Virus record (IMG/VR): IMGVR_UViG_3300020156_000032
Span: 1-57,890 of that record
Strand: one strand, 5' to 3'
Length of the DNA stretch: 57,890 nt
DNA from: a virus
Taxonomy: Duplodnaviria > Caudoviricetes
A program made the translations under genes and the position numbers. Below are positions 132 through 55,143 of this stretch, in pieces. The notes beneath the pieces were generated by a model. That model worked only from the letters and a program-made list of their open reading frames with translations, was not told where the DNA came from and did no database searches. Each line of letters opens with the position of its first letter. Within the stretch, counting starts at the first letter, position 1.

Positions 132-2852
132 ATGGCTCGCAAGAAGAAATCCAAGGATGATGTCAACGAGACGTCACCCCTCGATACCTCATCCCCTAAG
201 TCCACCCAATCCTCTACCCAACGCTCCGCTATGACCACCACAAAGTCTAAGAAGGCTGAGTCTACCGCGGTACTCCCTAACCGATTGCCCGTCCGCAAGG
301 CAGGTCCACCGTCTAAACCTAAGAGATCAAGCAGACCTCCAGTATTGGCGGGGACGAAGATAGCTCGTAAACCGGCCATCGCCCGGCCTCCTGTGGACCC
401 TCCTGATCCACCACCTAAGGTGCCTCCGAAGAAGAGGATTACTCTCCCCAAAGAGAGGATCGCCCCTAGCAAACACCATCGGATGTTCACACCAGAGGAG
501 CAACGAATCAAGAACAGTCAGGCGACCAACGAACGCCAGAAGGCAAAATTGAGGATCGCCCAGGACATTGCTCCCCTTCCCTTGGAGGATATTGATTGGG
601 AGCGACGCCTAGAGTGTAAGGAGTCTCTGAAGAAGTTCGCTGAGACGTACATGGCTCCAGTGTTCTACTTTGGATGGTCCAGCGATCAGCTAAAGTGCGT
701 CACTCGTGTTGAAGAGGTCATGCGGGTGGGCGGCATGTTCACTCTCGCTATGCCTCGTGGTGGTGGTAAGACAGCTATCTGTCGTGCTGGACTCCTCTGG
801 GCAACCGCCTATGGGTTTCGGAGGTTCATGTACTTCATCGGCAGCACCGACGAGAAGAGTCGTCAATCCCTGGAGTTTATCAAGACCTATTGGTGGCGTA
901 ATAAGATGCTCCAGCAGGACTTCCCCGAGGTGGGCCACGCTATCGATCGGCTAGAGAACAATTGGCACAAGGCTAGAGGTCAACTCTTCGAGGGTCTCCC
1001 AACTCACATCGTGTGGGGCTCCGGGGACCTTCGCCTCCCCTGCCTCACGCTTCCAGTGGACGTAGCCGACTGGTACGCAGAGCATGACCCTGACAGCGTC
1101 TCTCCTGTTCCGTGCATGGACTACGACCACCCCTTCTTGGATGATCGCCCGCCGGACCAGTGTGTTATCTCCCCCAAAGAAGTCAAGGGACCCCGGATAT
1201 GGGTCCCACGACAAGCAGGTATCATGGTCTCAACCAGTGGTATCGATGGGTCTATTCGTGGTGAAGCCCTGGTACATCCTGTCACCCTGGAACAACCGCG
1301 TCCTGACCTAGTGTTACTGGATGACATCCAGAAAGAGCAAAAAGCCGACAGTCCGATTCTGTGTGAGAAGCTCGCTCGTCTGGTCGATGGTGCTGTCCAA
1401 GGTCTCGCAGGTCCTGGTCGTAGCATCGCTGCTTTGATGCCTTGTACGGTCATCCGAGAAGGTGACGTTGCTGATCAATATCTCAATCCGCTCCTCAAGC
1501 CAGAATGGCAAGGTGAGCGATGTGCGATGGTGGTCACATGGCCAGCAGGGATCACTGACGTTGAGATCACCAATGACACGGAGGAAGGGAAACTCTGGAA
1601 TCAATATGCTGAACTCTATCGTCTCTCCCTCCGAGAACATCACGACATTCGACTAGCCCAGAACCTTTACCTGGCTAATCGTGAAGTGATGGATCGTGGT
1701 TTTGTCTGCTCATGGCCTGATCGCTATGACCGAGATGGTAAACTCCCAGAAGTGTCTGCTCAACAGCACGCAATGAACTTGCGTCTGAAACTGGGACCTA
1801 CCTTCTTGTCAGAGTACCAGAACAAGGGTCGTAAGCTCCAAGCCGAAGGTGAGATTACTATTACCGCGGCTCAGTTGGAGAAGAAGACTATCGCATGTAA
1901 GGAGTTCGAGGTCCCCAACGACACCCAGAAGATTGTCGCCCATATCGACGTTCAGATGGAGATCATGTTCTATACAGTCTTTGCATCGAACATGGACTTC
2001 ACGGGTATCTTTCCAACCTACGGTACTTGGCCTGACACAGGACTACGGTACTTTACCAAAGACCAGACTCGCTCTTGGTCTATGTTGACGACCGAGTTCT
2101 TCAAAGTCTACCCAGAGCATCGGAACAAAGCTATCAAGACCACCGAGGGACATATCCGTGCCCCTCTGGATGCTAAGATATACTTTGGTCTCCGACAGAC
2201 AGTCAATAAACTCAAAGGTATGACCTTTATCCGTCAGGACCAATTTAAGACACCTATGATAATCGATAAGATCACTATCGATACTCGGTGGGGTGAAACC
2301 TCTGAGGTGGTGAAACGGTTCATAAAGGAGAGTGGCGACCCCTCTCTCCTGGCCTATTATGGTCAATACATGCCACCGACTCACCGTCAGTTCGAGGAAT
2401 ACGACCTCAAGAAAGGATGGCTCTTTGAACACCAAGTCAGTCCCCATGTCCAGGAACCGAAGTGGTGTATCAAACCCAACCCCGATGGTCAGTTCTATAT
2501 GATGGCAGACGTAGATCGTCTCAAGGACTTCTTGTTTGCTCGTCTAGCCTCTCCTCTGGGAACCTCTGGTTCAATAGCTCTGTACGATGCTCCTGCCGAG
2601 AAGCATGAGCTATTCGCACACCATGTCTGCAACGCAGAGTACCCTGAGCCAGTGACCGCCAGAGGTCGGACTAAGAACAAATGGACTGTTCGAGAAGGTG
2701 TTGTCTACGACAACGACTTCTTAGACTGTGCTTGCGGTAACATGGCTTTGATGAGTACCTTCGGGGTCTCCGTCAAGACCACAGACCGTGTAATCAAACC
2801 CGTGATCCGTAAACTATCAGAGACCTATTCCAACCGCAGGAGGCAAGCATGA
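132..2852 (+). CDS. terL: Terminase large subunit, lambda gpA-like, with ~140 aa Lys/Pro-rich N-terminal extension
   Basis: Walker A AMPRGGGKT, Walker B-like LVLLDDIQ, C-terminal nuclease motifs HIDVQ and DNDFLDC; AGGAG SD at ~120; first gene of head module. Confidence 0.9.
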   Translation: MARKKKSKDDVNETSPLDTSSPKSTQSSTQRSAMTTTKSKKAESTAVLPNRLPVRKAGPPSKPKRSSRPPVLAGTKIARKPAIARPPVDPPDPPPKVPPKKRITLPKERIAPSKHHRMFTPEEQRIKNSQATNERQKAKLRIAQDIAPLPLEDIDWERRLECKESLKKFAETYMAPVFYFGWSSDQLKCVTRVEEVMRVGGMFTLAMPRGGGKTAICRAGLLWATAYGFRRFMYFIGSTDEKSRQSLEFIKTYWWRNKMLQQDFPEVGHAIDRLENNWHKARGQLFEGLPTHIVWGSGDLRLPCLTLPVDVADWYAEHDPDSVSPVPCMDYDHPFLDDRPPDQCVISPKEVKGPRIWVPRQAGIMVSTSGIDGSIRGEALVHPVTLEQPRPDLVLLDDIQKEQKADSPILCEKLARLVDGAVQGLAGPGRSIAALMPCTVIREGDVADQYLNPLLKPEWQGERCAMVVTWPAGITDVEITNDTEEGKLWNQYAELYRLSLREHHDIRLAQNLYLANREVMDRGFVCSWPDRYDRDGKLPEVSAQQHAMNLRLKLGPTFLSEYQNKGRKLQAEGEITITAAQLEKKTIACKEFEVPNDTQKIVAHIDVQMEIMFYTVFASNMDFTGIFPTYGTWPDTGLRYFTKDQTRSWSMLTTEFFKVYPEHRNKAIKTTEGHIRAPLDAKIYFGLRQTVNKLKGMTFIRQDQFKTPMIIDKITIDTRWGETSEVVKRFIKESGDPSLLAYYGQYMPPTHRQFEEYDLKKGWLFEHQVSPHVQEPKWCIKPNPDGQFYMMADVDRLKDFLFARLASPLGTSGSIALYDAPAEKHELFAHHVCNAEYPEPVTARGRTKNKWTVREGVVYDNDFLDCACGNMALMSTFGVSVKTTDRVIKPVIRKLSETYSNRRRQA

Positions 2853-3106
2853 ATGGTCGCTACAACCCAGAGACCCTCAAGGTTCAACTTGAACCCGAGA
2901 CTCCTGGTGAGCATCAATTCCTGTTCAATTTGATCCAACTCCTACAATCTGGTGGTAAGATCAGGATTAAGCCTACGGGCAAACCCTCTCTCTTGACCAC
3001 TTTCAAGGTCCGAGACATAGGTGAGGTTCGCGGGACCGCTGACTATACCTACGATGGTCCTATCTCCCCCAAAGAAATCGGAGGCCCCAATGGGACTAGG
3101 GATTGA
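2849..3106 (+). CDS. Hypothetical protein
   Basis: ATGA overlap with terL stop; AGGAGG SD upstream. Confidence 0.7.
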   Translation: MNGRYNPETLKVQLEPETPGEHQFLFNLIQLLQSGGKIRIKPTGKPSLLTTFKVRDIGEVRGTADYTYDGPISPKEIGGPNGTRD

Positions 3107-3935: not shown

Positions 3936-3936
3936 T

Positions 3937-6405: not shown

Positions 6406-7236
6406 ATGCTTCAGTTCTTCCTAAGTCGTCGCCTAGCATCAGGCCAGTATACTCTGACTGCGGGTCATGCAACCTTTGCCCTTTCAGGTCAAACTGCTAA
6501 CACTATTCGTAGTCGAGTCGTAACTGGTCAACAAGGTAGTTTCTCCCTTTCTGGTCAAGCTGCTAACCTTCTAAGAGGTCTATACTTAACTGCTGCTCAA
6601 GGGAGCTTTACTCTCTCTGGTCAGGATATCACCTTCGACCGTACCTATGTCTTAGCCGCGGTCTACGGTTCCTTCTCCTTGGCAGGTCAGAACGCCAACC
6701 TACTCCGAGGACTCTCCTTGGTCGGTGGTCACGGTACGTTCACCCTCTCAGGACAGTCCGTGAACCTCCTGAAAGGGTTTAGTGTGGTGGCTGCTCATGC
6801 CTCCTTCACACTAACTGATCAAGATGCTAGTTTAGAGTTCAATCGTCTCTTGGTGTCTGCTCATGGTAGCTTCACCCTGGATGGTCAAGCAGTAAACCTG
6901 CTTAAAGGTCACAGCCTTGCAGCTAGTGTGGGCTCTTTCACCTTGACTGGGCAGGACGCAATCCTCCAGTACGGTTCAGAGACTATCCTAGACGCAGACC
7001 ACGGCACGTTTACCCTCAGTGGTCAATCCGCTGACCTGACTGTAGAACGACTCCTAGTCGCGGACTATGGTTCAATAAGTCTAACCGGCCAGGACGTTCA
7101 GCTTCTCCCCCAAAGAATCCTGGTGGGGAGCCACGGCTCCTATACCCTCACTGGACAAGATGCTGATCTATTGTATTCTGCTGTAGCAACATTTAATCCA
7201 GCTTGGGCTGCTAACTCCAATAAACTCCTACTATGA
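6406..7236 (+). CDS. Repeat-containing virion protein (~21 aa repeats A-x-x-G-S/T-F-T-L-S/T-G-Q-x-A)
   Basis: About 12 imperfect tandem peptide repeats; AGGAGG SD. Confidence 0.75.
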   Translation: MLQFFLSRRLASGQYTLTAGHATFALSGQTANTIRSRVVTGQQGSFSLSGQAANLLRGLYLTAAQGSFTLSGQDITFDRTYVLAAVYGSFSLAGQNANLLRGLSLVGGHGTFTLSGQSVNLLKGFSVVAAHASFTLTDQDASLEFNRLLVSAHGSFTLDGQAVNLLKGHSLAASVGSFTLTGQDAILQYGSETILDADHGTFTLSGQSADLTVERLLVADYGSISLTGQDVQLLPQRILVGSHGSYTLTGQDADLLYSAVATFNPAWAANSNKLLL

Positions 7237-10349: not shown

Positions 10350-10469
10350 ACTTAGTTTGGCTACCTGTAGTTGTTGCGGTGACTTCCTACCTGATGGTAT
10401 GATGAAGTCATCCATCCATCGGAGAGTATTCCTTTCGCGGGACCTACTCTCCCCAAAGAAGGAGGGCCG

Positions 10470-12858: not shown

Positions 12859-13209
12859 ATGTCCTTGAAAGATTTAGCTGAAGGCGTGCGTGGGTCTCAG
12901 GGCACTATCACTCTGTCCCGTCGTGACGTCAAACGTCTCCAGCAGTATGTCGATAAGTCGAACGCCAGTGTCACAATCGACCGCATGTCCAACGGCGGGG
13001 CCATCATCAAGTGCCAGGACCTTTGCAACCTTGTCCTTGGTCCTGATGAGCCTGTTATCTCCCCCAAAGAAGAGGTCGACGTAGTCGAAACTCAGACCCT
13101 CACACCGTTCGATGGTGATGAAGATGACGAGGATGAGACGGACACCGATCTGGAAGGGGAGTCAGAAGTTGCTCCTCAGAAGAAGCGTCGTAAGAAAAAG
13201 CAATCGTAA
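12859..13209 (+). CDS. Hypothetical protein with acidic/basic tail
   Basis: GAGG SD; position after capsid gene. Confidence 0.65.
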   Translation: MSLKDLAEGVRGSQGTITLSRRDVKRLQQYVDKSNASVTIDRMSNGGAIIKCQDLCNLVLGPDEPVISPKEEVDVVETQTLTPFDGDEDDEDETDTDLEGESEVAPQKKRRKKKQS

Positions 13210-15861: not shown

Positions 15862-15959
15862 TCTTCCAGACCCATCCTAACGCCCTGGACCTTACCCCTC
15901 CCCGCATTCAATCTACCTTTGGATGCGGGGACTCATCTCCCCCAAAGAAGGAACCCCGC

Positions 15960-18147: not shown

Positions 18148-18585
18148 ATGTTCCGACTATGTCTTGTGCTGTGCCTATTATTGCTAACTGTGTTCGCTCT
18201 GCTCCCTGACCTGACCGCCGGTGAATGGGTCTTAACCCGAGCTACTTGCGATTGTTCAGACTGCAAATGTCCTGACTGCTCTTGCGGCATCGGCTGGGTA
18301 CTCACACCGCAGATCGAAGGAGCCATCTCTGCTCCAGCTGAACCTGATTACCTACCGAATGACCGTGACAACCTGGAGACGATTGCTAAGTCCAAGGATT
18401 GCCCTGACTGTGCTCAACAAGCACGCAGTAAGATCAAACGTCTGTTCGGTCCTGTGACTCAAGCGGCACCTGTCTACTCCGCCGAGGTTGCATCTCCCCC
18501 AAAGAATCGCGTAGTGCGACGATTCGGACAATGGGTCAAGACTCGACGACAAGGTCGTCGGTGTAACGGACCCAACTGTCAGTAA
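18148..18585 (+). CDS. Exported Cys-rich small protein
   Basis: Signal-like N-terminus; CDCSDCKCPDCSCG, DCPDC, CNGPNC; GAGG SD. Confidence 0.65.
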   Translation: MFRLCLVLCLLLLTVFALLPDLTAGEWVLTRATCDCSDCKCPDCSCGIGWVLTPQIEGAISAPAEPDYLPNDRDNLETIAKSKDCPDCAQQARSKIKRLFGPVTQAAPVYSAEVASPPKNRVVRRFGQWVKTRRQGRRCNGPNCQ

Positions 18586-20517: not shown

Positions 20518-20560
20518 TTTCCGCCAGGCCATTATCTCCCCCAAAGAATGAGAGGCCACC

Positions 20561-23230: not shown

Positions 23231-23286
23231 AGACTTCACGCGGGACTGTCTTACCATATCTCCCCCAAAGAATAGGAGGGCGACCC

Positions 23287-30084: not shown

Positions 30085-30318
30085 CTAGGGACGATGATAG
30101 GAAACCGACCTGGCAAAGTCTCGCATGATAGCTTCCAGGTCGGACGTAAGACCTTCTTCCCCAAAGACGAGGAGGAAGGTGAATTGGTTAGGGAGTCCAT
30201 CATCAAGATGATGAATGAACTCACAATGTACGACGGTGGAATTGAGATCGCCCACTACCTTATTGGCAGCGAACAGATTGTACCCATCCACCGTCACACT
30301 CACTTGTTTGACCTTCAT
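30085..30318 (-). CDS. Hypothetical protein
   Basis: Tiled - strand operon. Confidence 0.5.
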   Translation of the reverse strand: MKVKQVSVTVDGYNLFAANKVVGDLNSTVVHCEFIHHLDDGLPNQFTFLLVFGEEGLTSDLEAIMRDFARSVSYHRP

Positions 30319-33350: not shown

Positions 33351-34823
33351 TTACGGATGCTCCAGCACGAGGTGTTCCATTGTGGTCTCCCACTCTTGAT
33401 CGTCAGAGTGGCTACGCAGGGTAACGTGCTTCTTATCATCAGCCACGTTCACGATCTCCCCAAACCAATACTCATCGGCCAATTCTGTGACCCAGGCCGT
33501 GTCTCCAACAGCCCATTTCTTCCCCTTCTTGGAGCCCTTGGTCCCCTTGCCGATTGACCTCTTGGCCTTTACCGGCTTGTCTTCGACCTCATCGTCCTCC
33601 TCATCCTGGGAAGAACGCTCAACATCCAGTCCACCAAGGCGATGTTCTTCAATCACCTTGTACTCATCGTTCCGCTCCAAACGTAACTTGGAGGTCGAGG
33701 TCTTCTTACCATCGACCCACATGTTGTACGCCTTGACCACAGTGTTGACGATCTCATCCCGAGCAGAACCACTCGCAGCTTCGATGTCCCCAATGATGTC
33801 CTTGCAGCATTGGATTGGATCATCCGACTTCAAGTTCCCGCTGTAGAACAGCGACCAGAACTCACAAGCCGTTTTCCAGTTGCTCATGTCTACAGCCCCA
33901 GCACCTTCCTCTTCATAGGCGTCTGGGTCCGTACCACTCGCAGCCATCAGGTACAAGAGGGCCGCAGCGTAGGCTGGCTGGATATACTTGCTGGAGCCCT
34001 TCTTGCTCTCCAGGTCGATATACTCCACAGCCTGCTTGATCTGAGGATGGTTCTCCAAGAACTCCAGACCTTCAGAATGGGGAAAGTGTTTAGCATCGCT
34101 GACCTTCTTCCCACCAGACCGAATCCAGACCAAGCGTACTGCTCCGGCGAGGATGTTGGACAACTGCTGGAGCTTCTTCTTGTCCACCGTGTCCCCTTCA
34201 AACCTCTTGTCACGATAGAACACATCCCCCAAAGAACGCTTCTGGCCGATGTCCAATGTGTCCACCGTATCAGCCTCAGCCTCGATGCCGTACACGACGA
34301 TCATAGGGGCTGTGACCTCATCCACCAGGCCATAGTCATTGGCCCACTTCTCTGGGTTGGCAATGCGGAGTTGCTCTGCCAAGATCAAACCGACCAATCG
34401 ATGCTGTCCTGATTGGATGCAGTCGTACTTGTCGATGATGATCGTCTCACCATTCATCTTCCACTTGCCACGAATGAATTCGCTGGCGTACCTCCGAGCA
34501 AAGCTGATGCGGAATGGTCGATTGGTTGGATTCTTGAGACACTTGAACTTCTTCTTATTGAAGCCAGTCCCCATTGCCTCATCCGCTGACCACTCCACAC
34601 CCTCTGGCTCCTCTTCCCAGCCAAGAAGCTCCTTGGCAATCTCCACGGTCATGGGCTTATCCTCTGGATACAGCTTGACATGGACCTTGTTGTGAACCAA
34701 CTCGAACTGACGCTGGCGTTCCTCCTGGACCAACCGCTTCTTGCGTTGGGTGGGAGTTTCCCGCTTGACCTCTTTCGGCGTAACCTTACGGGGAGCCGGA
34801 CGATTCTTAGTTGCAGTAGCCAT
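33351..34823 (-). CDS. ParB-N / DGQHR-like protein with acidic linker and C-terminal SH3/Tudor-like barrel
   Basis: NR...GKWKMNGETII...SGQHRL...D.GQKRS.GD; AGGAG SD. Confidence 0.7.
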   Translation of the reverse strand: MATATKNRPAPRKVTPKEVKRETPTQRKKRLVQEERQRQFELVHNKVHVKLYPEDKPMTVEIAKELLGWEEEPEGVEWSADEAMGTGFNKKKFKCLKNPTNRPFRISFARRYASEFIRGKWKMNGETIIIDKYDCIQSGQHRLVGLILAEQLRIANPEKWANDYGLVDEVTAPMIVVYGIEAEADTVDTLDIGQKRSLGDVFYRDKRFEGDTVDKKKLQQLSNILAGAVRLVWIRSGGKKVSDAKHFPHSEGLEFLENHPQIKQAVEYIDLESKKGSSKYIQPAYAAALLYLMAASGTDPDAYEEEGAGAVDMSNWKTACEFWSLFYSGNLKSDDPIQCCKDIIGDIEAASGSARDEIVNTVVKAYNMWVDGKKTSTSKLRLERNDEYKVIEEHRLGGLDVERSSQDEEDDEVEDKPVKAKRSIGKGTKGSKKGKKWAVGDTAWVTELADEYWFGEIVNVADDKKHVTLRSHSDDQEWETTMEHLVLEHP

Positions 34824-36108: not shown

Positions 36109-36408
36109 CTGGCCGAGATACTCCAGTCTTACGACCCGCCCACGGTTGGTCGGAAACCTCAGTACCCTTGGGATGAGTGGCTGGATGGCCGCAAGCGTCG
36201 ATTAACCCAAGGTGAAGACTTCCATTGCGAGATCAACTCGATGGCTCGTCTTATCCGTAGAACAGTCACGAAGAAACGCCAGCAAGGATCAACGCTGGAG
36301 TCCGTGACAGTCCATGTCGAGGCCAATGCTCTCGTCGTGGAAGCTGTACTCTCCCCAAAGAATCGCAAGGGCCGGAACTGCCCTAAGACCAACAAACAGA
36401 AAGGATGA
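36109..36408 (+). CDS. Small basic protein with CTG start (absent from ORF track)
   Basis: AAGGA SD 36094-36098; (M)AEILQSYDPPTVGRKPQYPWDEWLDG...QGEDF...KG stop; fills gap to next gene. Confidence 0.65.
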   Translation: MAEILQSYDPPTVGRKPQYPWDEWLDGRKRRLTQGEDFHCEINSMARLIRRTVTKKRQQGSTLESVTVHVEANALVVEAVLSPKNRKGRNCPKTNKQKG

Positions 36409-37826: not shown

Positions 37827-39035
37827 ATGGTGTCTACCCGCTCCTACCGCAATCCTCGCCGGGCCTCATCTCCCCCAAAGAAGCAGACGCCCCTGTGGCG
37901 TGGACCTCAAGAAGATGGCATCACGTTCTCTCTGCTATCTCGATTTATTGAGTGTAGGGAACGCTTCCGTCTCAAGGTCATTGAGGGATTGGTTGAGGAT
38001 GAAGGCTTCTTAGATGCCATCGAGTATGGCAACATGTGGCATGAGGCTGAGGAAGCATTTAGTCGCAAACGAGATTACGAACGAGTCATGCGACAAATGT
38101 ATGCTCGTTGGCGAGCTAACTACCCTAACCAAGAGGAGGAGACTCGTAAGTGGTACATGGTCTGTAAGACCACGTTCCCGATCTACATCGAATACTGGAA
38201 GCAACACCAACATGAGGTTCAACGTACTCCAATCCTGGAAGAGAAATCTTTCTCGGTAAAATACGTTTTACCCTCTGGTCGTTGGTTAAAGCTCCGGGGG
38301 AAGTTCGATGCAATCTTCGGTATCCTCAAGACAGGACAACTCCTACTCCAAGAGAATAAGTCCAAAAATAAGATGGACCTTGAGGGACTCCAAAAGACTC
38401 TCGACCAAGATTTACAAACCATGCTCTACCAGATCGCCATGCGGCTATCTATCGTAGAGAAGAAGGGGGAACACTACTTTCAGACTGATGAAGGTCAGAT
38501 GAAGGTCCCTCAGATGAAGAAAGCTCCTACCTTCCAAGGGGTTCTCTATAACGTGGTAAAACGTCCTCTTTCGGACATGTATGCTATCCGTCAACGTAAG
38601 ACGGAAACAGAGACTCAGTTCTTCGACCGGCTGGCCCAGAACATCCGTGAAGATTCCTTTACTTCTGATGGTAAGGCCAAAAGAGACTCCAGCTACTTTC
38701 ATCGCTGGGAGATCAACATCACGGAAGAAGAGATCGACACGTTCAAGAACCGAGTTTTTGACCCGCTGCTTGAACAACTGATGGACTGGTGGGAATGGAT
38801 TCAACCAGACCCATTTGATCCCTGGCGACCCAGAACCTATGGTGAGATGAAATGGCATGAGTTCCCAGACCAAGAGGAGGTGCGTAACACCTTCCATTGG
38901 CAATCACCTTGGGGAGTCTACAATTCACTTGCTAGTGGTCGTCGTGGTTCTTACTTTGACCTCCTGACATCCAACAGCAAGAAGGGGCTGCATAAAGCAA
39001 CAACCCTCTTCCCAGAACTCCAAAAGGTAGAGTAA
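37827..39035 (+). CDS. Cas4/RecB-like PD-(D/E)XK exonuclease
   Basis: FSLLSRFIEC, GNMWHE, E.SF, GKFDAI..ENKS, LQTMLY. Confidence 0.8.
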   Translation: MVSTRSYRNPRRASSPPKKQTPLWRGPQEDGITFSLLSRFIECRERFRLKVIEGLVEDEGFLDAIEYGNMWHEAEEAFSRKRDYERVMRQMYARWRANYPNQEEETRKWYMVCKTTFPIYIEYWKQHQHEVQRTPILEEKSFSVKYVLPSGRWLKLRGKFDAIFGILKTGQLLLQENKSKNKMDLEGLQKTLDQDLQTMLYQIAMRLSIVEKKGEHYFQTDEGQMKVPQMKKAPTFQGVLYNVVKRPLSDMYAIRQRKTETETQFFDRLAQNIREDSFTSDGKAKRDSSYFHRWEINITEEEIDTFKNRVFDPLLEQLMDWWEWIQPDPFDPWRPRTYGEMKWHEFPDQEEVRNTFHWQSPWGVYNSLASGRRGSYFDLLTSNSKKGLHKATTLFPELQKVE

Positions 39036-41876: not shown

Positions 41877-41903
41877 TTATCTCCCCCAAAGAAAGCTAAG
41901 CCC

Positions 41904-44839: not shown

Positions 44840-46033
44840 ATGCCAATAAAAACCGAAAACCAAACCCAGGACAATCCCCAAACCATTCCCCTGGACAATC
44901 CTACTGCTCGATTCATCTACTGGATGATGGAACGACACCGTATCCATCTCAAACGCCAGGCTGGTTTACCTAAACCCTGGACCACTGACAAGGTTCTCCA
45001 GTCATACTTCTTCACCAACCCTTTCCGAGAGAACGATAAGACAACAGCGTGGTATCGAGAGAACATCCGTATCCCTTACACTACTCCACCCCACTACAAT
45101 CCCTCCCCACCCAACAAGTTTCCCTCTGCTCCCTCCCTCAGTCTGTCTCGTGTCTTGTTCGCTACTATCGCTTTCCGGTGGTTTAACTTTATACCCACCG
45201 GACAACTCCTACTAGGCCGGGCCTTGAGCAACCTGTCATCCTCCCCAAAGGACATCAAGGCTTTTGCCGCCAATCGGAATAACCTATTGTACCACTGGGA
45301 TATGATACGAGCTATCAATCGTCTCACTATCCACCAACAGTACGGTCACAAAATCTTTACAGGAGCCTATATTATCAAGTCTCCTGACCGTCGTAACATC
45401 CCTTTCACCCTAGGATACACAGACGGTCCTGTCGGTGAACAAAGACTCCACTTTCCTGATAATCGAATCGTCCCCAAACGATCATCCAAGGGGGTCTACG
45501 ATAAGATCGAAGCAATCTGTTGGGCCGTCAACAACGTATGGCTCGACTTGACCGCTCTCACCAACTGGTTCACCAACACCCAACGTAGTCTGGAGGAAGC
45601 TCATCAAAAACTCTGTTGCTACCCCTACCTGGGAGACTTCATGGCTTACGAGATTGTGAGTGACTTACGCTTCACTCCTCTCTTGGACCAGGCCCCTGAC
45701 ATCAACACTTGGGCCAATATGGGACCAGGAGCTACTCGTGGTTTACGTCGTCTCCGTGGTCTCCCTGCCGAGGGACCTCTCCCTCGCAACTACAAGGAAC
45801 TGATGCTCCAACTCTGGGACCGAGCCAAACTGGACTTCCGAGTTATGGCTGGTCCTCCTATTCCCTCTGTATCCTCCCCAAAGGAACCTAGGTCCTCTTG
45901 GATCAAGTCCGGCTTATACCCCTACCCCAATATCGAGATGCGAGAGATCGAACATTCTTTGTGCGAGTTCGATAAATACGAACGAGCCCGTCTACAGGAC
46001 GGTCAACTAAAGCGTCTATACCAAGGCACCTAA
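44840..46033 (+). CDS. aGPT-Pplase clade 1-like DNA base hypermodification protein A
   Basis: FIYWMMERH...PKPWT.D.VL..YFFTNPFRENDKTT, FRWFN, GDFMAYEIVSD, GPGA.RGL, REIEHSLCEFDKY. Confidence 0.82.
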   Translation: MPIKTENQTQDNPQTIPLDNPTARFIYWMMERHRIHLKRQAGLPKPWTTDKVLQSYFFTNPFRENDKTTAWYRENIRIPYTTPPHYNPSPPNKFPSAPSLSLSRVLFATIAFRWFNFIPTGQLLLGRALSNLSSSPKDIKAFAANRNNLLYHWDMIRAINRLTIHQQYGHKIFTGAYIIKSPDRRNIPFTLGYTDGPVGEQRLHFPDNRIVPKRSSKGVYDKIEAICWAVNNVWLDLTALTNWFTNTQRSLEEAHQKLCCYPYLGDFMAYEIVSDLRFTPLLDQAPDINTWANMGPGATRGLRRLRGLPAEGPLPRNYKELMLQLWDRAKLDFRVMAGPPIPSVSSPKEPRSSWIKSGLYPYPNIEMREIEHSLCEFDKYERARLQDGQLKRLYQGT

Positions 46034-46084: not shown

Positions 46085-47605
46085 ATGCCCCTCCAAATCA
46101 AGACAATCCGTACTGTACTGCCTGGCTCCCCTGGTTGGTATTGGTTCCGCACCTCCACCGATGCTCCTTGGAATCCCATCTTAGTGGAATACACCGATGG
46201 TAAATCCCAAGCTCACCTCGTTGGATGTTTCTACAAAGAGGTCCCTAACTCCAACAACGGAGCTTGTTTCAAGGTCACTGCTCCCATCGAGGAATTTGAG
46301 GGTGAGTGGGGAGATGAGATCACTCCCCCTAAGCAAGCCAAACCTGCCCTACAGATCACTTACGGTTCAAGCACGACCTCCGAACGAGCCCCTCGTACCC
46401 AGTACAATCCTCCTGCTAACCAGTCAATCATCCCTGCTCAGTTCGAGAAGTTCCTCTACTGGATTCAGGAGCGTCACCAAATCTATCTAAACCGAGAGGT
46501 CAACAATTCTCCGAAGCCTTGGACAAAGGACCCGATCTTGCAGAACAACTTCTTCTGCAATCCTTTCCGAGAACTCGATAAGACAACCCAGTGGTTCCGT
46601 AATAAACTCCGGCAACCATTGGCTCCGTACCGCGAGGTACTAATGGCTACGATCATCTTTCGCTGGTTCAATTACATCCCTACCGGCGAGGCTCTACTCC
46701 ATGCTTACGATAGTACAGATGCCGAGACCACTAAGGCTCGTATCAAATCCGCTGTTCGTACTCCTGCTGATCCTTTCCTGGCAGTCGTAGGTCCCCAAGT
46801 CGCAGATATGCGTAAGACTCTGAGCAAGGCTGCTAAGAAGGGTATCGCTAAGGCCGGAGCTATCGCTAAGGGTTCTTCCCCAAAGAAGTCTGCTCAACCC
46901 TCCCAAGCAGAACACCTCCCCTTGGGCCTGTTCACCAACTGGGACACAACTAAAGCGATGAGTATCCTATCGAAGCTCAAGCCTGTATTCACCTCAGCCT
47001 ATGTAGTGTCCTCCGCAGAGGGACTCTCCAAGCTGGATAGCATCGCAGGTTCTATTGGTGAGATGTGGGAAGCTCGTAACTCGATCTATGAAGCCCTCGT
47101 ATCCCACCACACCACGATGGAGAAAGCTCACCAGTTCTTAACCTCCTTCCCTGGTATCGGTAACTTCACCGCTTACGAGTTAGTATGCGATCTCCGCTTC
47201 ACCCATATCGGAGAAAAGTGGTCCGATGTCAACGCTTGGGCCAATGCAGGTCCTGGTGCAATGCGAGGTCTGAACCGTTTGTACGGTCGTCCGATCTCAT
47301 TCGCCAGAGGGACTTATGATTGGGTGTCCGAATTACAGCATGTATACTCGAAGACAACCAATGCCCTCTTGGAACATAACTTCCTCAATGCCCCTCATGG
47401 TGAGGTCCCTTACCACTCCCTCAACTGCGAGGATGCCGCTGCTGCTCCTAACCTGCTGTTCGACCTACCTTTTGAACTACGAGAGATCGAACACTCCCTC
47501 TGTGAGTTCGATAAGTATATGCGATTGTATGAGCCCGTGTCTGCTGACGAGTATCGTCCTGGCGACGTACCAAAGCAGTCTAAGCGTAAGTTCAAAGGTA
47601 CCTAA
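46085..47605 (+). CDS. aGPT-Pplase clade 1-like DNA base hypermodification protein B, extra N-terminal domain
   Basis: Same motifs as 44840 paralog (PKPWTKDPIL..NFFCNPFRELDKTT, REIEHSLCEFDKY); N-terminal PGWYW domain. Confidence 0.82.
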   Translation: MPLQIKTIRTVLPGSPGWYWFRTSTDAPWNPILVEYTDGKSQAHLVGCFYKEVPNSNNGACFKVTAPIEEFEGEWGDEITPPKQAKPALQITYGSSTTSERAPRTQYNPPANQSIIPAQFEKFLYWIQERHQIYLNREVNNSPKPWTKDPILQNNFFCNPFRELDKTTQWFRNKLRQPLAPYREVLMATIIFRWFNYIPTGEALLHAYDSTDAETTKARIKSAVRTPADPFLAVVGPQVADMRKTLSKAAKKGIAKAGAIAKGSSPKKSAQPSQAEHLPLGLFTNWDTTKAMSILSKLKPVFTSAYVVSSAEGLSKLDSIAGSIGEMWEARNSIYEALVSHHTTMEKAHQFLTSFPGIGNFTAYELVCDLRFTHIGEKWSDVNAWANAGPGAMRGLNRLYGRPISFARGTYDWVSELQHVYSKTTNALLEHNFLNAPHGEVPYHSLNCEDAAAAPNLLFDLPFELREIEHSLCEFDKYMRLYEPVSADEYRPGDVPKQSKRKFKGT

Positions 47606-48056: not shown

Positions 48057-48440
48057 ATGGTCCCTCGTGATTACCGCGTGGAGGTTGTAAACCCTGTGGA
48101 CATCCCTATTGACATCCCACCCCCTATCCTTCCTGACCCTCCGTCGGGACCTCATCTCTCCCAAAGAGCCCCGGTGACGGTGGCTCCTGATGGGAAGATA
48201 ACAATCCAGGTCCCACCTGTTGATACTCCTAAGCTGGAGATCATTGACACCCCTATCCTCAAGTACCTCCATAAATTGTTGGTTGAGGATGAACGGCCAG
48301 TAGTTAAGGTCAGTACTCTGACTGGTATAAACTACTCTAACCTATTGGGCTTCTATCATGGTCATAAGGATATTGGTCTGGCAAGTACCTTACGCCTGAT
48401 GAAGCTCTACAATATCCACTTTTGCCAGATCAACGACTAA
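48057..48440 (+). CDS. Protein with C-terminal XRE-like helix-turn-helix
   Basis: GGAG SD; PVVKVSTLTGINYSNL..FYHG..DI.LAST.RL. Confidence 0.6.
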   Translation: MVPRDYRVEVVNPVDIPIDIPPPILPDPPSGPHLSQRAPVTVAPDGKITIQVPPVDTPKLEIIDTPILKYLHKLLVEDERPVVKVSTLTGINYSNLLGFYHGHKDIGLASTLRLMKLYNIHFCQIND

Positions 48441-50139: not shown

Positions 50140-51468
50140 ATGCACCTCACTTACCGCAACGTCAACGATGCTTTCCGCACTGTTATGCAGGAGATGGATT
50201 GGGGTACTATCCGCTCCGTCATTACTGAGACTCGCAATGGACCTTGTCGCACCATCCGCGGACCTGTCATCTTGGAGTACACTTCTCCCAAAGAACGTGT
50301 ACTATGGAACGAAGCTAGGGATGCTAATCCTTTCTTCCATGTCATCGAGGCTCTGTGGATGCTCGCAGGTCGTAATGACGTAGAGACTCTCGATTGGTTC
50401 AACTCCAATATGAAGTCTTACTCAGACGATGGTAAGACATTCCATGCTGCTTATGGTCATCGTTGGTACAACCTAGCCACTCCCCATTGTAATCCCCAAT
50501 TCTGTGGTCCCCCATTTGATCAATGTGGCTACATCCAAGCCGATTGTGACCAACCCCTCAACCAACTCCGAGATGTAGTCCAACTACTCAGTGATCAACC
50601 TAACACCCGTAGGTGTGTCCTGTCTATGTGGGACCCTTTGGACCTCCACAAAGTGGTCACTGACCCTACTTGTAAGGATGTAGCTTGTAACACCCATATC
50701 TACTTCGAGTTAGAACCTCATCGTGTCTGGCGGGAAGGTCAGTACCACGGTCTGCCTATCCGTCACACTGATAAGGAGTTCACAGAGTACAAGCTCAACA
50801 TGACGGTATGCAACCGTAGTAATGATGTCTTGTGGGGAGCCCTTGGGGCTAACTACGTTCATATGTCGTTCCTACAGGAGTACATTGCCGCTTGTGTAGA
50901 CTACCACTTACCTGATGGATCAGTCCAGGTCGGAACCTACTACCAGTTTACTAACAACCTCCACCTCTACAAGGATAAGCAGGACACTGTAAGTTGGCTC
51001 AAGGATTCAACTCCTGACTACTACAAACAACCAGGGTACACCCCTTTACCCTTGGTGCTGAATGCGATAACCTTCACGGAGGAGGTCCAGCTTGCTATGG
51101 ACGTTATCGCCAGCTTCAAGTCAGGAACGAGGTCCAAACCCACTTCAGGACTGTTTCAGGAGCCTTTCTTGGAGAGTGTGTTCCTGCCTATGCTCCATGC
51201 TTGGACTTTCCACAAGCATCGCAACTATCCTATGGCTTTGTATCATGCCAGTTTGATCCGTAGTCCTGATTGGGCTCGTGCTTGTAAGCAATGGTTGGCT
51301 CGCCGCGAGGCTAACTACTTGATGACACGCAAGACCCGACCTATCGATCCTCCTACTTCCCCCAAAGAGGTCCAAGCCAACACCCAAGCTAATGAACCGT
51401 CTCCTACAGTTCATAGCAACCCTACTCCCCGACAAGATGATCACCCCGTACCACGAGACGAAGGATGA
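50140..51468 (+). CDS. Thymidylate synthase-fold enzyme, probable dUMP hydroxymethylase
   Basis: NPFFHVIEALWML.GRND, YSDDG, AYG.RW, TRR.VLSMWDP, KDVACN, NRSND..WGA.GAN (Asn near the dUMP-specificity position), NLHLY. Confidence 0.85.
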   Translation: MHLTYRNVNDAFRTVMQEMDWGTIRSVITETRNGPCRTIRGPVILEYTSPKERVLWNEARDANPFFHVIEALWMLAGRNDVETLDWFNSNMKSYSDDGKTFHAAYGHRWYNLATPHCNPQFCGPPFDQCGYIQADCDQPLNQLRDVVQLLSDQPNTRRCVLSMWDPLDLHKVVTDPTCKDVACNTHIYFELEPHRVWREGQYHGLPIRHTDKEFTEYKLNMTVCNRSNDVLWGALGANYVHMSFLQEYIAACVDYHLPDGSVQVGTYYQFTNNLHLYKDKQDTVSWLKDSTPDYYKQPGYTPLPLVLNAITFTEEVQLAMDVIASFKSGTRSKPTSGLFQEPFLESVFLPMLHAWTFHKHRNYPMALYHASLIRSPDWARACKQWLARREANYLMTRKTRPIDPPTSPKEVQANTQANEPSPTVHSNPTPRQDDHPVPRDEG

Positions 51469-52712
51469 TATCGGACCGCTACCCCAAAACCAATCCTCCT
51501 ACAGTCCTCAAGTTGAAGTCTGTATACAACCCTGACCTCCACCTCCTTACCCACTACGAAGTAGAGAACATTACTATGGAATACCGCGATAAACTCCTGA
51601 ATGACGCAGCTAGTATCTGCCAGGAACTCACCCCTATCATACGCACTACAGTTTGCACCCCGTACATCAGCCACAACTGGCCAATATCTATCCAGCCTAG
51701 TCTAACTAAGGGTGTAAACATCATCCGTGACCTCCTCACCGCGGTTATGACCCAGGAACGTGAGATTAAGGAATTGAAGGAGACTAATAGTAAGCTCGAA
51801 CACGAAAAATCCCAACTACAGGCTGAGACTGATCGTCTTAAAGCGGGACGATTTACCAAAGACGAACTACACAACATCTGTCACAACCTCAAAGCAACTG
51901 TTCCTGTAGAGGAATTTGCTCAAGGCTGCATCAATGAAATGCAAAAGCTCTATGGAGAATGTCCTTTGGAACTTCCCAAACCTCAACCAACATCCATAGT
52001 TCCCCTCCCCCCTGGCACCCAACTACAGTCTACCTTGGACCCTCAGTTCCAGGAGGTCGTGAACTTGGGTAATGCTGATGCTCAGCACCTCCAACAGAAG
52101 GACTATTCCTACGGGTCCTCTTGGCGTAAGCGAGGAGGGGTCGGAGCCTTTATGATGTTGGCTCGTAAATGGGACCGCCTTGAGAAGATGTGCGAGGCTC
52201 ACAACTACGACATCTTCAAACCTATCAGCAAAGAGCTTAAAACTCTCCAAGTTCACGATATAGCTGAGGTGGGACATAAGATAACCCCTTCTACTCACCC
52301 CAACCCGCTCTATGCTGAGACCGACGATAACACCGTATTAGCCCAGGTCCGTGACCTCCGCCGCTACTTGTTCTTGGTGGAGAGTTGGTTGATCCTCCAG
52401 GCCAAGTCTATCAACCACCAGAACAATGGACTACAAGGCCATACCATCCCACTGTGGGTTACTGACCTTGAAGCTAGTGAGAGCTATACACCGACTCCTA
52501 TCGCAACCACCCAACAGATAGAAGCTATGGTCAAAGATCGTATGGACCCCTCCTTTGACGACCCCTACGAGGCCCACCTCAAACCCTCGCAGGACCATAC
52601 TTCCCCCAAAGAACACAACCCAGCCGAGGAGACTCAGGAACGGCTAGCAACATCTAAGAAGAAGAAACCACCACAGATCGATAAAGTCGACCTCTTCCCC
52701 CATAGTCACTAA
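51465..52712 (+). CDS. Multidomain protein with Nmad1/DUF1599-like nucleotide-modification-associated domain
   Basis: KDYSYGSSWRKRGGVGAFMMLARKWDRLE...DLRRYL.LVE. Confidence 0.7.
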   Translation: MISDRYPKTNPPTVLKLKSVYNPDLHLLTHYEVENITMEYRDKLLNDAASICQELTPIIRTTVCTPYISHNWPISIQPSLTKGVNIIRDLLTAVMTQEREIKELKETNSKLEHEKSQLQAETDRLKAGRFTKDELHNICHNLKATVPVEEFAQGCINEMQKLYGECPLELPKPQPTSIVPLPPGTQLQSTLDPQFQEVVNLGNADAQHLQQKDYSYGSSWRKRGGVGAFMMLARKWDRLEKMCEAHNYDIFKPISKELKTLQVHDIAEVGHKITPSTHPNPLYAETDDNTVLAQVRDLRRYLFLVESWLILQAKSINHQNNGLQGHTIPLWVTDLEASESYTPTPIATTQQIEAMVKDRMDPSFDDPYEAHLKPSQDHTSPKEHNPAEETQERLATSKKKKPPQIDKVDLFPHSH

Positions 52713-52767: not shown

Positions 52768-55143
52768 ATGAAATTGTCTGAATGTCCAGAGAAAATTAAA
52801 CCTTTCGTGTTCCACGGTCTACACCTGGAACCAATGGAGAAAGGTGAGGTCAAGGAAGTTCGTGGCGATTGCCCCTTCTGTGATAAAAGCAATCACTTCT
52901 TTGTCAAGGCCGAGACTGGTCAATGGCAATGTAAGCGTTGCAGTAACAGCGGCAATATCTATAGCTTCCTCCAGATGCTGTTGAATGAGAGCCTACCTTT
53001 GACCACTGACGACGACTATGAGTCCTTATCAGAGGATCGTCATGTCCCAGTATGGGTTCTCAAGGAATTTAGGGTCTGTCGTTCTATGCTCAATGGAGAG
53101 TGGTTACTCCCCACCTTCAATGAGAAGAACGCTATCTCTAACCTCTACAAATACACCGAACTCACTGACCCTGAGAGCGGTGAGACCATCACCAAACTCC
53201 TCAGTACCCCAACCTGCAAGATTGGTCTGTTCGGTACTCCCCTCCTCACTGATAAGCAGAAGCAACTCTGTATCTGTGAGGGACCGTGGGATGGTATGGC
53301 CTTGTATGGTGTGCTAGGGACTCTCAAGAAGAAGGGAGACCGTTACGTCACCTGCAAGAACGGTACACCTGGAGTCCTGCTAGAGGCACACGGAGTATTG
53401 TGTGTCCCTGGTGCTGGTACATTCCAGGAGTCTTGGCTCAACTATTTCCCTGGTCGTAACGTGGACCTCCTATTCGACAACGACCACCCACTCAAGAAAC
53501 CCGACGGTGGTATACGTCTGGTCAAGGGTCAGTGCGTTCGTCCTGGCTGGGATGGAATGACTCGTGTCGTAGCTATGGTCAACCAGACCGGGAAGCGACC
53601 TCGTCGCCTCCGCGTGTTGGCATGGGGTCAACCACCAGACGATGTTGAGCAATCCGGGGGCTACGATGGTGTATCCTCCCCAAAGAACCTGGCAGGGTAC
53701 GGTCACAATAACGACCTCCCACACGGCTATGATATTCGTGACTTGATCAAGGATAAAGGTCCTCGTGAGGTAGTGAGCTTCCTCAAGTCGGCCCCTACCA
53801 AGATCGAAATGGAGAAGCCGAGTTCTGATAGCCATACGGATATTCCCACCGTGGAGCCTATCGAACGAACTACCTTTGAGGACCTCTGTAAGGATTACGC
53901 AAGTGTACTCCACTTTAGTCCTCAATTACGAGACACCTTGTGTGTCATGTTGTCAGTCATTACTAGCACTGACCTGCTAGGAGATCAATTGTGGCTCAAG
54001 GTGATTGGTCCACCTGGGTCCGGCAAGACAACACTCGCAGAAGCCGTGTCAGTAGCTCGTGAATACTGTATGCCTAAGAGTGTTCTCACTGGGTTCCATT
54101 CAGGATACCTGGAACAGGATGGTCGGAGAGCCTCGAAGGACAACAGCTTGATTCCTGACATGAAGGGTAAGACCGTCATCGTCAAAGACGCGGACACTTT
54201 GATCCAGGCCCCTAATCGGGATAAGATCATGTCCGAGTTACGCGACATATATGACGGGACCTCTCGTTCTCATTATCGTACTGGTAAACAGAACGACTAT
54301 AGTGACATTCGTACTACATTCATCTTGTGTGGTACGGACGAGCTTCGCATGTTGAATCGTTCGTTCCTCGGTGAACGCTTCCTCGACTGTGAGATCATGA
54401 CTAAGGATCAGGACACTACGCCCTATCTACAGCGGGCTATGTCCAACACCTACAGTAAGATCACACAGGGGATGTTGGCTAACACTCCTGACAACGACGA
54501 TAACGAGGTCCGCGAGGATTCGTCCGAGGGGCTGTTCCTCCAGCAAGTTACTTATGGATTCTTGAAACACCTCAAGGAGTCATTACCTCAGTTACGTCCT
54601 CCTATCCTCCCCAAAGAAGTGGAGGGCACACTCGGTGCCTTGGCTACGTTCCTAGCATACATGAGGGCTCGTGTTCGTCGTGATGGATACGACCTCGCAT
54701 ATCGTCCTAGGGCTGAGCTTCCTACTCGTATTGCGAGTCAGTTAGTGAAGCTGGCTGTATGTATTGCTATCGTCTTGGGTAAGGAGACTATTGACGATGA
54801 GGTCCTACGCATTGTTCGTGATCGTGTACTAGACACATCAGTTGGATTCCAACTGGATGTTGCTAAGGCACTCATCGACAAAGAGGAAGGTTTGAGTGTT
54901 CGCCAGATTTGTGTGGCTGTCAATCTCCCTGAGACAAATGTACGTCGTTTGTTAAACGATTTACAGGAGTTCAATATCGTGGAGCGTTACCAAAAGTCAA
55001 ACAAGTCTGGTCAACGTGGTCGTGATATGCACCTATGGGTTCTCACTGAGGGACTAAGCGAAATCTATAAAGCTGCGTTCCTTGATCAGAAGCCTGTGCA
55101 GAAGTCAAAGCCAAAGCCTAAACCCAAGGCTCGTAAGAAATAA
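52768..55143 (+). CDS. Primase-helicase: Zn finger, TOPRIM, MCM-like AAA+, C-terminal winged helix
   Basis: CPFC..CKRC; ICEGPWD, LFDND; GPPGSGKT, VKDAD, ERFL, PTRIASQL. Confidence 0.85.
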   Translation: MKLSECPEKIKPFVFHGLHLEPMEKGEVKEVRGDCPFCDKSNHFFVKAETGQWQCKRCSNSGNIYSFLQMLLNESLPLTTDDDYESLSEDRHVPVWVLKEFRVCRSMLNGEWLLPTFNEKNAISNLYKYTELTDPESGETITKLLSTPTCKIGLFGTPLLTDKQKQLCICEGPWDGMALYGVLGTLKKKGDRYVTCKNGTPGVLLEAHGVLCVPGAGTFQESWLNYFPGRNVDLLFDNDHPLKKPDGGIRLVKGQCVRPGWDGMTRVVAMVNQTGKRPRRLRVLAWGQPPDDVEQSGGYDGVSSPKNLAGYGHNNDLPHGYDIRDLIKDKGPREVVSFLKSAPTKIEMEKPSSDSHTDIPTVEPIERTTFEDLCKDYASVLHFSPQLRDTLCVMLSVITSTDLLGDQLWLKVIGPPGSGKTTLAEAVSVAREYCMPKSVLTGFHSGYLEQDGRRASKDNSLIPDMKGKTVIVKDADTLIQAPNRDKIMSELRDIYDGTSRSHYRTGKQNDYSDIRTTFILCGTDELRMLNRSFLGERFLDCEIMTKDQDTTPYLQRAMSNTYSKITQGMLANTPDNDDNEVREDSSEGLFLQQVTYGFLKHLKESLPQLRPPILPKEVEGTLGALATFLAYMRARVRRDGYDLAYRPRAELPTRIASQLVKLAVCIAIVLGKETIDDEVLRIVRDRVLDTSVGFQLDVAKALIDKEEGLSVRQICVAVNLPETNVRRLLNDLQEFNIVERYQKSNKSGQRGRDMHLWVLTEGLSEIYKAAFLDQKPVQKSKPKPKPKARKK

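Follow-up and report, generated by a model that had tools for sequence, protein, structure and literature searches.

A strand-polarised, evenly spaced 15-mer and its variants in the genomes of an uncultivated phage clade

Introduction

Asymmetric sequence words confined to one strand of a phage genome have so far been known, in the portions of the literature drawn on here, only as nick sites in three phage groups (PMC3517423, PMC11780129). According to the excerpted account of phage tf, 14 sites of a 9-mer all lie on the top strand of a genome with two convergent gene sets, and its relatives carry 8-9 sites on one strand (PMC3517423). For phage Rembedalsseter, the corresponding excerpt describes 13 nicks at WACTRTGAC, all on one strand, and enrichment of the motif in 61 related phages (PMC11780129). 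Here we describe a 15-mer, ATCTCCCCCAAAGAA, and its variants, which recur on one strand of a siphovirus-like metagenomic phage. The window analyzed (W) is the whole of IMG/VR virus record IMGVR_UViG_3300020156_000032, 57,890 bp from a soil metagenome assembly. An earlier note on this DNA had proposed the 15-mer as a directional signal for nicking, DNA ejection or packaging, recombination or condensation.

Like the sites of tf, Rembedalsseter and the LUZ24-like phages (TACT/RTGMC and WACTRTGAC in the excerpts, about 9-14 copies per genome), the element is an asymmetric word that keeps to one strand regardless of the genes and is retained in relatives. It differs from them in sequence and lineage, in its 19-35 evenly spread copies per genome and in its construction, since the purine half varies and the pyrimidine tract persists; it is also known here from sequence alone. 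One-strand polarity is likewise shared with the localized nicks of T5/BF23 and the phiKMV-like phages; those, as excerpted, have 4-5 major sites and an unrelated consensus, and the T5 word also occurs on the un-nicked strand (PMC3517423). The present work adds an unrelated, uncultivated clade with a denser, evenly spaced element, a two-part anatomy and visible co-evolution.

Results and Discussion

The element in the window

The exact 15-mer occurs 12 times in W, each time on the + strand and at the positions the earlier note had listed, and none of 100 dinucleotide shuffles reached 12 copies (shuffle mean 0.00). When up to three mismatches are allowed, 29 matches are found against an expectation of 2.47 (maximum 8); 27 are on the + strand, and both of the - strand matches lack the core. 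Of the near copies that had been reported, those at 3996, 9216 and 33454 are likewise without the core CCCAAAG and are doubtful. Counts on the two strands (+:-) are 25:0 for CCCCAAAG, 26:0 for CCCAAAGA and 27:1 for YYCCCAAAG; the - strand thus holds nothing like a similar number of copies, and the polarity stands. Shifted copies, ACTCTCCCCAAAGAR, are real at 441, 10446 and 36348, and the motif supplies the most frequent 8-, 10- and 12-mer of W. The enrichment is also seen against a codon-preserving shuffle, in which protein and codon usage are kept: over 200 runs, CCCCAAAG had a forward mean of 2.17 (maximum 7) and a reverse mean of 0.55, compared with the 25 copies observed. The sites are listed below, with shared positions in the related genomes G1, G2 and G3, which are described in the next section.

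441..455, +: copy ACTCTCCCCAAAGAG, in the terminase gene, frame 0
1167..1181, +: exact copy, in the terminase gene (ISPKE); matched in G1 at the homologous alignment column
3062..3076, +: exact copy; an in-frame ATG preceded by GGAGG begins 13 nt further on
7103..7117, +: copy TTCTCCCCCAAAGAA with one mismatch, close to the 3' end of gene 6406-7236
10446..10460, +: copy ACTCTCCCCAAAGAA, intergenic, 10 nt before the capsid/protease start at 10470
13057..13071, +: exact copy, in gene 12859-13209
15935..15949, +: exact copy in a spacer, 11 nt ahead of the gene start at 15960; slot also filled in G2 and G3
18492..18506, +: exact copy, in gene 18148-18585
20534..20548, +: exact copy in a spacer, 13 nt ahead of the tape-measure start at 20561; slot also filled in G1 and G3
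23258..23272, +: exact copy, behind the tape-measure gene; an in-frame ATG preceded by AGGAGG begins 14 nt further on; slot filled in G1
25916..25930, +: exact copy, intergenic, at the junction of the + and - gene blocks
28042..28056, +: exact copy, within the - strand UvrD-like helicase gene, where it is read as SLGE
30154..30168, +: copy TTCTTCCCCAAAGAC, within - strand gene 29490-30224
32535..32549, +: exact copy, overlapping the start of - strand gene 32090-32545
34222..34236, +: copy ACATCCCCCAAAGAA, within - strand gene 33351-34823
36348..36362, +: copy ACTCTCCCCAAAGAA, in gene 36314-36778
37868..37882, +: exact copy, close to the 5' end of the PD-(D/E)XK exonuclease gene
41879..41893, +: exact copy, directly after the CsrA-like gene and 11 nt before the start at 41904
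45238..45252, +: variant ATCCTCCCCAAAGGA, in the first 5-hydroxymethyldeoxyuridine (5-hmdU) DNA kinase gene; G1 has a copy at the homologous column
45871..45885, +: variant ATCCTCCCCAAAGGA, in the first 5-hmdU DNA kinase gene
46873..46887, +: variant TTCTTCCCCAAAGAA, in the second 5-hmdU DNA kinase gene
48154..48168, +: variant ATCTCTCCCAAAGAG, in gene 47997-48440
50281..50295, +: variant ACTTCTCCCAAAGAA, first of two sites in the thymidylate-synthase-like gene
51355..51369, +: variant ACTTCCCCCAAAGAG, second site of that gene
52599..52613, +: variant ACTTCCCCCAAAGAA, in gene 51465-52712
53673..53687, +: variant ATCCTCCCCAAAGAA, first of two sites in the primase-helicase gene
54604..54618, +: variant ATCCTCCCCAAAGAA again, second site of that gene and the last copy

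With gene calls based on the longest open reading frames (ORFs), 19 of the 27 sites fall in + strand genes, where all three frames are used (7, 5 and 7 sites), and four each fall in - strand genes and between genes. The presence of copies inside - strand genes and in intergenic DNA, and their different reading frames, had been claimed before and are confirmed by these figures. The site shares match the shares of the genome that are occupied by + genes, - genes and intergenic DNA (0.70, 0.16 and 0.14), and sites within - genes are thus as common as their share of the genome predicts, indicating that the signal follows the polarity of the genome and not that of transcription. A -1 frameshift slippery heptamer (C CCA AAG) was rejected as an explanation on the strength of the 7, 5 and 7 frame distribution and of the core of G3, CCCACAG, which is not of the form X XXY YYZ.

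Site spacing is more even than random placement would give: for the 27 sites the mean gap is 2.08 kb, the coefficient of variation (CV) is 0.46 as compared with 0.97 (P=5e-5), and the largest gap is 4041 nt (P=0.001). Gaps range from 1.5 to 2.9 kb across 10.4-37.9 kb and from 0.6 to 2.1 kb across 45-54.6 kb, in agreement with the two spacing regimes described earlier, and no strict or fixed period was found in W. We observed no conservation beyond the word itself in the flanks of the W copies. A hairpin at the sites is not indicated in W or G1, where no consistent stem was found and the minimum free energy of the + strand equals that of random windows.

The alternative that we hold least probable, to the point of being negligible, is that the motif is a product of chance or assembly, a protein-coding repeat or a small mobile insertion. 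The shuffle controls, the use of all reading frames and the unconserved flanks speak against it. So do the assemblies: a Logan assembly of run X1, made with a second assembler from possibly the same reads, is identical to W over 10001-30000 (0 differences), a second soil run from another study contains identical short pieces of W, and contigs from other samples carry the element. The suspicion of an artefact, raised as a possibility in the earlier note, is in this way removed as far as sequence data reach.

Six copies in W (3062, 10446, 15935, 20534, 23258 and 41879) are followed, 10-14 nt on, by a start codon preceded by a Shine-Dalgarno-like run, and some of these leader slots are common to several genomes. 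That these six lie just upstream of starts had been pointed out before and is confirmed. Among 84 sites pooled from W, G1, G2 and G3, 10 lie within 30 nt upstream of a + strand start, compared with about 2.7% for random positions. These observations would suit an RNA or transcription signal on rightward transcripts, such as a promoter of an unrecognised phage RNA polymerase, a processing site or a translation enhancer. Only 24 of the 84 sites lie within 250 nt upstream of a + start (about 22% expected at random), and the other 71% are farther away and no different from random. Moreover, the 12 of 84 sites inside - strand genes equal the genome share of those genes, so that antisense copies would be frequent; scans of the proteins revealed no RNA polymerase among those covered; and even spacing is unexpected for promoters. 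We therefore consider such a signal improbable. L5 stoperators and T7-type promoters are also sets of many near-identical asymmetric sites in one phage genome, but they follow transcription and the element does not. A stoperator or promoter was accordingly rejected, as the orientation ignores transcription and the sites are not concentrated upstream of genes.

Conservation and co-evolution in relatives

An exact 15-mer scan of IMG/VR returned 80 stretches with one match each, mostly by chance, two of which led to the related genomes G1 and G2. G1 (56 kb) has YCCCCAAAG at 25:0 within a longer consensus, CTTTCCCCCAAAGAAGAGSCGSCC, of which about 24 nt are conserved. G2 (52 kb), which is circularly permuted relative to W, has 13:2. 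In G3 (58 kb, with a capsid 50% identical) the word differs by one letter: CCCACAGA occurs in 18 copies, next to two of the W-type CCCAAAGA, as compared with one on the opposite strand. L200 has 17:5, or about one site per 1.2 kb. Further variants are CCCAGAGA (4:0 in L240), CCCAGGAA (4:0 in L248), TTTCTTCCAGAAA (9:0 in G4) and YYCCAGAAA (7:1 in L229, 6:0 in L238 and 4:0 in L230). At least five core variants therefore exist: CCAAAGA, CCACAGA, CCAGAGA, CCAGGAA and CCAGAAA. When all versions are aligned on CCA, each consists of 8-10 pyrimidines ending in CC, followed by A and 4-6 mostly purine letters, and only CCA (TGG on the other strand) is invariant.

We placed these genomes in a quick maximum-likelihood tree of the capsid protein, which took in the 27 of 29 genomes with a capsid ORF of at least 500 aa. 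In the six outgroup rows, the general pattern Y5C-CA-N-R-R-A is found at 0:0 to 0:1. Within the ingroup, 19 of 21 rows are forward-biased or tied (W 29:2, G1 36:4, G3 27:2, L200 19:3, G4 11:1), and the only rows without the element are G5 and its duplicate L231 (3:7 and 1:4). The pyrimidine strand is the coding strand of terminase and capsid in every case. Spacing is also even in relatives (G3, CV 0.48, P=6e-4; G1, CV 0.67, P=0.008). The expected conservation in related phages is thus borne out, as a W-type or an altered word with the same strand bias.

Single sites are conserved as well. W and G1 share sites at homologous alignment columns of the terminase (391) and of the kinase (322), and sites recur between genomes in the intergenic slots on either side of the tape-measure gene and in the one behind the orthologue of gene 15427-15861. 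At terminase column 336, G2 reads LPKE and G3 reads FPTE; at portal column 28, G1 reads SPKE and G3 reads SPTE. This change from K to T at homologous sites indicates that the protein follows the DNA word and not the reverse. Together with the use of all frames and conservation with a changed core, it upholds the earlier claim that selection acts on the DNA and not on the protein. The element is a clade-wide trait that co-evolved, as seen in the core variants and in the amino acid changes that track the DNA word. The motif is real, strongly selected and polar with respect to the genome, acts at the DNA level, and is conserved and co-evolving in an uncultivated phage clade. We take it to be a cis-acting signal, read on the DNA in one orientation by a process that crosses the whole genome in one direction. 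A literature search that covered articles, with supplementary files outside its reach, found no description of this element.

Several candidates were set aside. TTGAAGA (G5, G4) and TTGGCGGGG (L230), considered as motif analogues, are coding-word biases. Contig C95 of G137 has eight same-strand copies and no homologue of any W protein, and was not retained as a relative. In the helicase-based relatives L091-L098, only local promoter-like or iteron repeats were found. A tie to the thymidine-hypermodification genes was rejected, as L200 has 17:5 sites without that module and L199, with it, has 1:0.

As a separate observation, runs of eight pyrimidines outnumber runs of eight purines on the coding strand in W (531:337), G1, G3 and L200; most relatives, in a comparison set that includes L193 and L196, are opposite in this respect (G5, 398:802).

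Strand asymmetry and a possible role in lagging-strand initiation

In the genomes in which the motif is dense, third-codon GC skew (+ strand letters) is negative in + and - genes alike: -0.17/-0.21 in W, -0.24/-0.19 in G1, -0.18/-0.17 in G2 and -0.23/-0.08 in G3. The values are +0.06/+0.03 in motif-less G5 and -0.10/+0.14 in G4, where the motif is sparse. Because the sign is the same in both gene orientations, the dense-motif genomes have a strand asymmetry across their whole length that does not depend on transcription, which is what one-way replication would lead one to expect. AT skew, by comparison, flips with gene direction. The cumulative GC skew of W falls monotonically with no turning point, and masking the sites leaves the overall skew about the same (-0.087 before, -0.083 after). 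A polar word thus coincides with a silent-site strand asymmetry that is blind to gene direction, which provides a testable link to replication polarity.

Two features near the right end of the window bear on replication.

52768..55143, +: primase-helicase, 791 aa, with a DnaG-type zinc ribbon, a P-loop NTPase and a C-terminal winged helix; candidate reader if the motif directs priming
55927..56414 (stack to 56767), +: stacked short repeat arrays (11-13 bp); putative replication origin

The primase-helicase matches the PHROG DNA primase family (E=1.4e-9), the Pfam CHC2 zinc finger (E=3e-4, under the curated cut-off) and the zinc-binding domain of PDB 1d0q (E=0.006), and orthologues occur in all relatives, including motif-less G5. 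The arrays comprise about 11 copies of GGAGTYCTGCAAG, an A+T-rich ACTCTTAAAGAA-like array with an 11-bp period, about 6.6 copies of AGTTAGCCCCT, and CCCTG/CCCTAG arrays; three more copies of GGAGTYCTGCAAG lie at 23183-23231, beside the motif copy at 23258. Such a stack, with an A+T-rich array and immediately behind the primase-helicase gene, is typical of how origins are laid out, and judging by its sequence it is likely an origin or a regulatory region. There is no motif copy to the right of 54,618, and hence none to the right of the arrays.

The reading that we place first, tentatively and at well under even chances, is that each motif copy programmes a start of discontinuous + strand synthesis and so serves as an Okazaki-type signal for lagging-strand initiation. 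This process was outside the list proposed in the earlier note, and it fits the gathered evidence at least as well as the processes on that list. A fork would leave the origin-like repeats near 56 kb and move leftward, with the - strand as the lagging-strand template; this orientation is taken from the sign of the GC skew, because the leading strand is G-rich in bacteria. The primase would read each site, and + strand fragments would start at the motif, from primers with + strand sequence beginning at the A after the pyrimidine tract (pppA-A/C/G-R...). Selection against long unprimed gaps would then maintain the even spacing of 1-4 kb. The fork direction, the primase as reader and the start position of synthesis are what we infer; the points that support the reading as a whole are the polarity, spacing on the scale of Okazaki fragments, the conserved anatomy, the orientation-independent skew, the origin-like repeats and the primase-helicase.

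For zinc-ribbon primases, a T templates the first A of the primer, and the base 3' of it is required and not copied. On the template strand the element would read 5'-NTG-3' followed by a purine tract, which, with a pppA start, resembles that rule. Known primase words include 5'-CTG-3' for E. coli DnaG and 5'-GTC-3' for T7 gp4, and 5'-(G/C)GGA-3' is given for AtTwinkle in the abstract of PMC5737085. As far as that abstract and general knowledge of primases go, such words are read strand-specifically on a single-stranded template, contain a 3' base that is needed yet uncopied and give primers with a purine start, and the invariant TG(G) of the - strand would fit this rule. The primase words are, however, 3-4 nt long and not visibly enriched, whereas the conserved element spans 13-24 nt and is highly enriched.

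Several observations weigh against lagging-strand initiation. We know of no precedent for long priming signals encoded in a genome, and a literature search for them found none. The recognition words of known primases, as given in the same abstract, are only 3-4 nt (PMC5737085), whereas 15 nt are identical in 12 copies in W and about 24 nt are conserved in G1, and a conserved length of 15-24 nt fits a sequence-specific DNA-binding enzyme better. The primase-helicase of motif-less G5 is as similar to that of W (43%) as are those of motif-bearing relatives. The agreement with the primase rule is weak evidence, because the anatomy admits a reading on the opposite strand as well. Finally, the skew comparison sets four related genomes against two, and the 3.3-kb site-free stretch beyond 54,618 is of a length that gaps normally reach.

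If the copies are indeed primer start sites, they would represent a new way of organising lagging-strand synthesis. The wider picture, which we offer only as a possibility, is of a phage clade, probably with Planctomycetota as hosts, that replicates in one direction only and uses a dedicated, long, co-evolving, genome-encoded start signal (pyrimidine tract, CCA, purines) for each lagging-strand fragment, about every 1-4 kb. Okazaki starts would in that case be hard-wired in the sequence and not picked from frequent 3-nt words.

Possible alternatives (nicking, guide words) and candidate readers

Priming and nicking, one or other of which we hold to be the most likely role, share the same sequence signature, and both predict new + strand ends at the pyrimidine/purine junction, between positions 9 and 10 of the 15-mer. 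By analogy with T5, the phiKMV-like phages and the tf/LUZ24-like phages, a site-specific phage nickase, possibly the terminase during packaging, could cut the + strand and leave about 27 ligatable nicks in virion DNA. We regard this as possible and almost as likely as lagging-strand start sites. It has direct precedent, as the in silico signature matches those of tf and Rembedalsseter in the excerpts cited above: the word is asymmetric and keeps to one strand whatever the gene orientation (12:0 for the exact copies, 25:0 for the core, with four sites in - genes), it stays wholly or mainly on one strand in G1, G2, G3, L200 and G4, and throughout the clade it has the same orientation with respect to the terminase strand. 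A long conserved word of 15-24 nt also suits a sequence-specific nuclease, and the contigs of W, G1, G3 and G4 start 43-132 nt upstream of the terminase gene, suggesting defined ends.

Other results do not sit well with nicks. The word is unlike the nick consensuses quoted in those excerpts, and deposited phages gave W no near-identical match in DNA and only distant ones in protein. With 19-35 sites per genome, the element is more numerous and far more even than the tf-like sites, which the excerpt places in a cluster in one half of the genome. Nicking also leaves the C/T-interchangeable tract and the third-codon skew unexplained, and no gene was found in all motif-bearing genomes that is absent from G5. 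Contig ends were tried as a proxy for breaks and set aside: none of the ends of 16 whole contigs is at a site, and the break of a Logan contig at 25,689-25,712 leaves 204 nt to the closest copy. If the sites are nicked, the phenomenon would extend to siphovirus-like phages of another bacterial phylum, and the clade would offer natural specificity variants for finding the enzyme.

A third reading is that the G-rich complement, TTCTTTGGGGGAGAT, on the 'leading' strand is a polar guide word for a translocase or helicase-nuclease of the host or the phage, which would enter from one end or follow the fork, in the manner of Chi, KOPS or cosQ. Like Chi and KOPS/SRS, the element is a G-rich word co-oriented with the G-rich strand, in near-total single orientation and at one copy per 1-4 kb, a density comparable to the one per few kb of those words. 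Genes for a RecB-family nuclease, a Sak4-like annealase and a UvrD-like helicase are present in the phage itself. Chi and KOPS words span 5-8 nt and are host-wide, whereas the element is longer, varies among phages and is rare in the Planctomycetota genomes searched (5 + 201, outside which the actual host may lie). The highest count of YCCCCAAAGAA in any of the 201 genomes is 71 copies per 8.7 Mb, compared with 20 copies of CCCCAAAGAA in the 57.9 kb of W. The five genomes richest in the 8-mer have 323-801 copies per 6.4-9.5 Mb, which is only 1.9-3.3 times a reversed-word control and at least five times less dense than in W. These low counts lower the case for a host Chi or KOPS word, with the proviso that the searched genomes may exclude the actual host. 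Variation of the core between related phages points to a reader on the phage side, and the UvrD-like helicase is unmatched in G3 and in the examined part of L200. We therefore judge a guide word unlikely, although less so than an RNA signal. The probability that is left beyond the readings given here belongs to something else.

A reader could not be assigned by presence and absence, since no gene of W or G4 occurs in all motif-bearing genomes and is absent from motif-less G5. The candidates named in the earlier note fare no better as specific readers: the TnsA-like nuclease at 41904-42491 and the protein encoded at 33351-34823 are both present in G5, and the paralogs at 32090 and 57038 are missing from motif-bearing G2. 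These paralogs (32090-32545, - strand; 57038-57538, + strand) are small basic proteins with Lys/Gly-rich tails, found only in W (two copies), G1 and G3, and they have no match in Pfam or PDB. The - strand gene 33351-34823 encodes a clade-conserved protein of 490 aa with 186 homologues, none with a Pfam domain. Its motifs NNPTNRPF and QSGQHR resemble what we take to be those of DGQHR/ParB-superfamily proteins. The label 'ParB-like' is not sustained, as there is no Pfam or NCBIfam match and Foldseek, run with an AlphaFold model (mean predicted local distance difference test score 88.5), returned nothing at E<=0.001 and only weak ParB and KorB rows (E 0.14-0.36, probability 0.2-0.33). In the structure comparison, the rows cover only a C-terminal Tudor/SH3-like domain (Z up to 7.5).

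Genome context and further observations

The main genes of W are arranged as follows.

3/132-2852, +: large terminase, lambda gpA-like; opens the window
8631-10349: portal
10470-12773: protease-capsid fusion
20561-23143: tape measure
25,991-36,449, -: block of - strand genes, including the UvrD-like helicase

After the - block comes a + strand replication block that encodes a UDG-family protein, a PD-(D/E)XK exonuclease, a Sak4-like protein, a CsrA-like protein, a TnsA-like nuclease and PolA. The genes next after PolA encode two 5-hmdU DNA kinases, a MazG-like protein, a thymidylate-synthase-like protein and the zinc-ribbon primase-helicase. No close deposited phage was found: megablast gave no match, and the protein matches of portal and PolA are below 35% identity. 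Relatives of the capsid protein occur in metagenome-assembled genomes (MAGs), and because 9 of 11 such loci belong to MAGs that carry a Planctomycetota label (Gemmata, Gimesia with one contig of 962 kb, Pirellulaceae and Phycisphaerae), the host phylum is probably Planctomycetota.

The contig starts near the terminase gene are shared by four independent contigs and suggest a cos-type genome with a defined left end, so that W may be nearly complete despite a completeness estimate of 75%. A search of the contig ends for a conserved sequence of the cos kind revealed none. A Logan contig ends exactly at window base 1, and G2 runs through the same junction.

A thymidine-hypermodification module lies at 44840-52712 and consists of two 5-hmdU DNA kinase paralogs (Pfam HMUDK_hel, E=1e-38 and 1e-45), a MazG-like pyrophosphohydrolase and a thymidylate-synthase-like enzyme, which is probably a dUMP hydroxymethylase. 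By these gene assignments, the phage DNA probably contains modified thymidine. The module is missing in G5 and L200, in which PolA abuts the primase.

The phage homologue of CsrA (41532-41876; Pfam CsrA, E=1e-23) has orthologues in G1, G3, G5, L193 and L196, and a CsrA-like ORF is present in the spacer between primase and terminase in G2. A tRNA-Ile gene with anticodon TAT (55391-55459) stands directly before the repeat region.

A second one-strand word, AATAAACTCC, is found at 7:0 in W (7219, 12840, 15454, 30813, 34828, 46601 and 52717), mostly just upstream of gene starts, and it may serve this clade as a leader or promoter element. Versions of it in relatives, motif-less ones included, are CTAATAAACGCC, TAATAAAAACCA and AATAAACCCC. 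Finally, the related metagenome contig L233 has seven direct repeats at 2928-4435, with a period of about 250 bp (TCTCTCCT..TTTGGCCGG).

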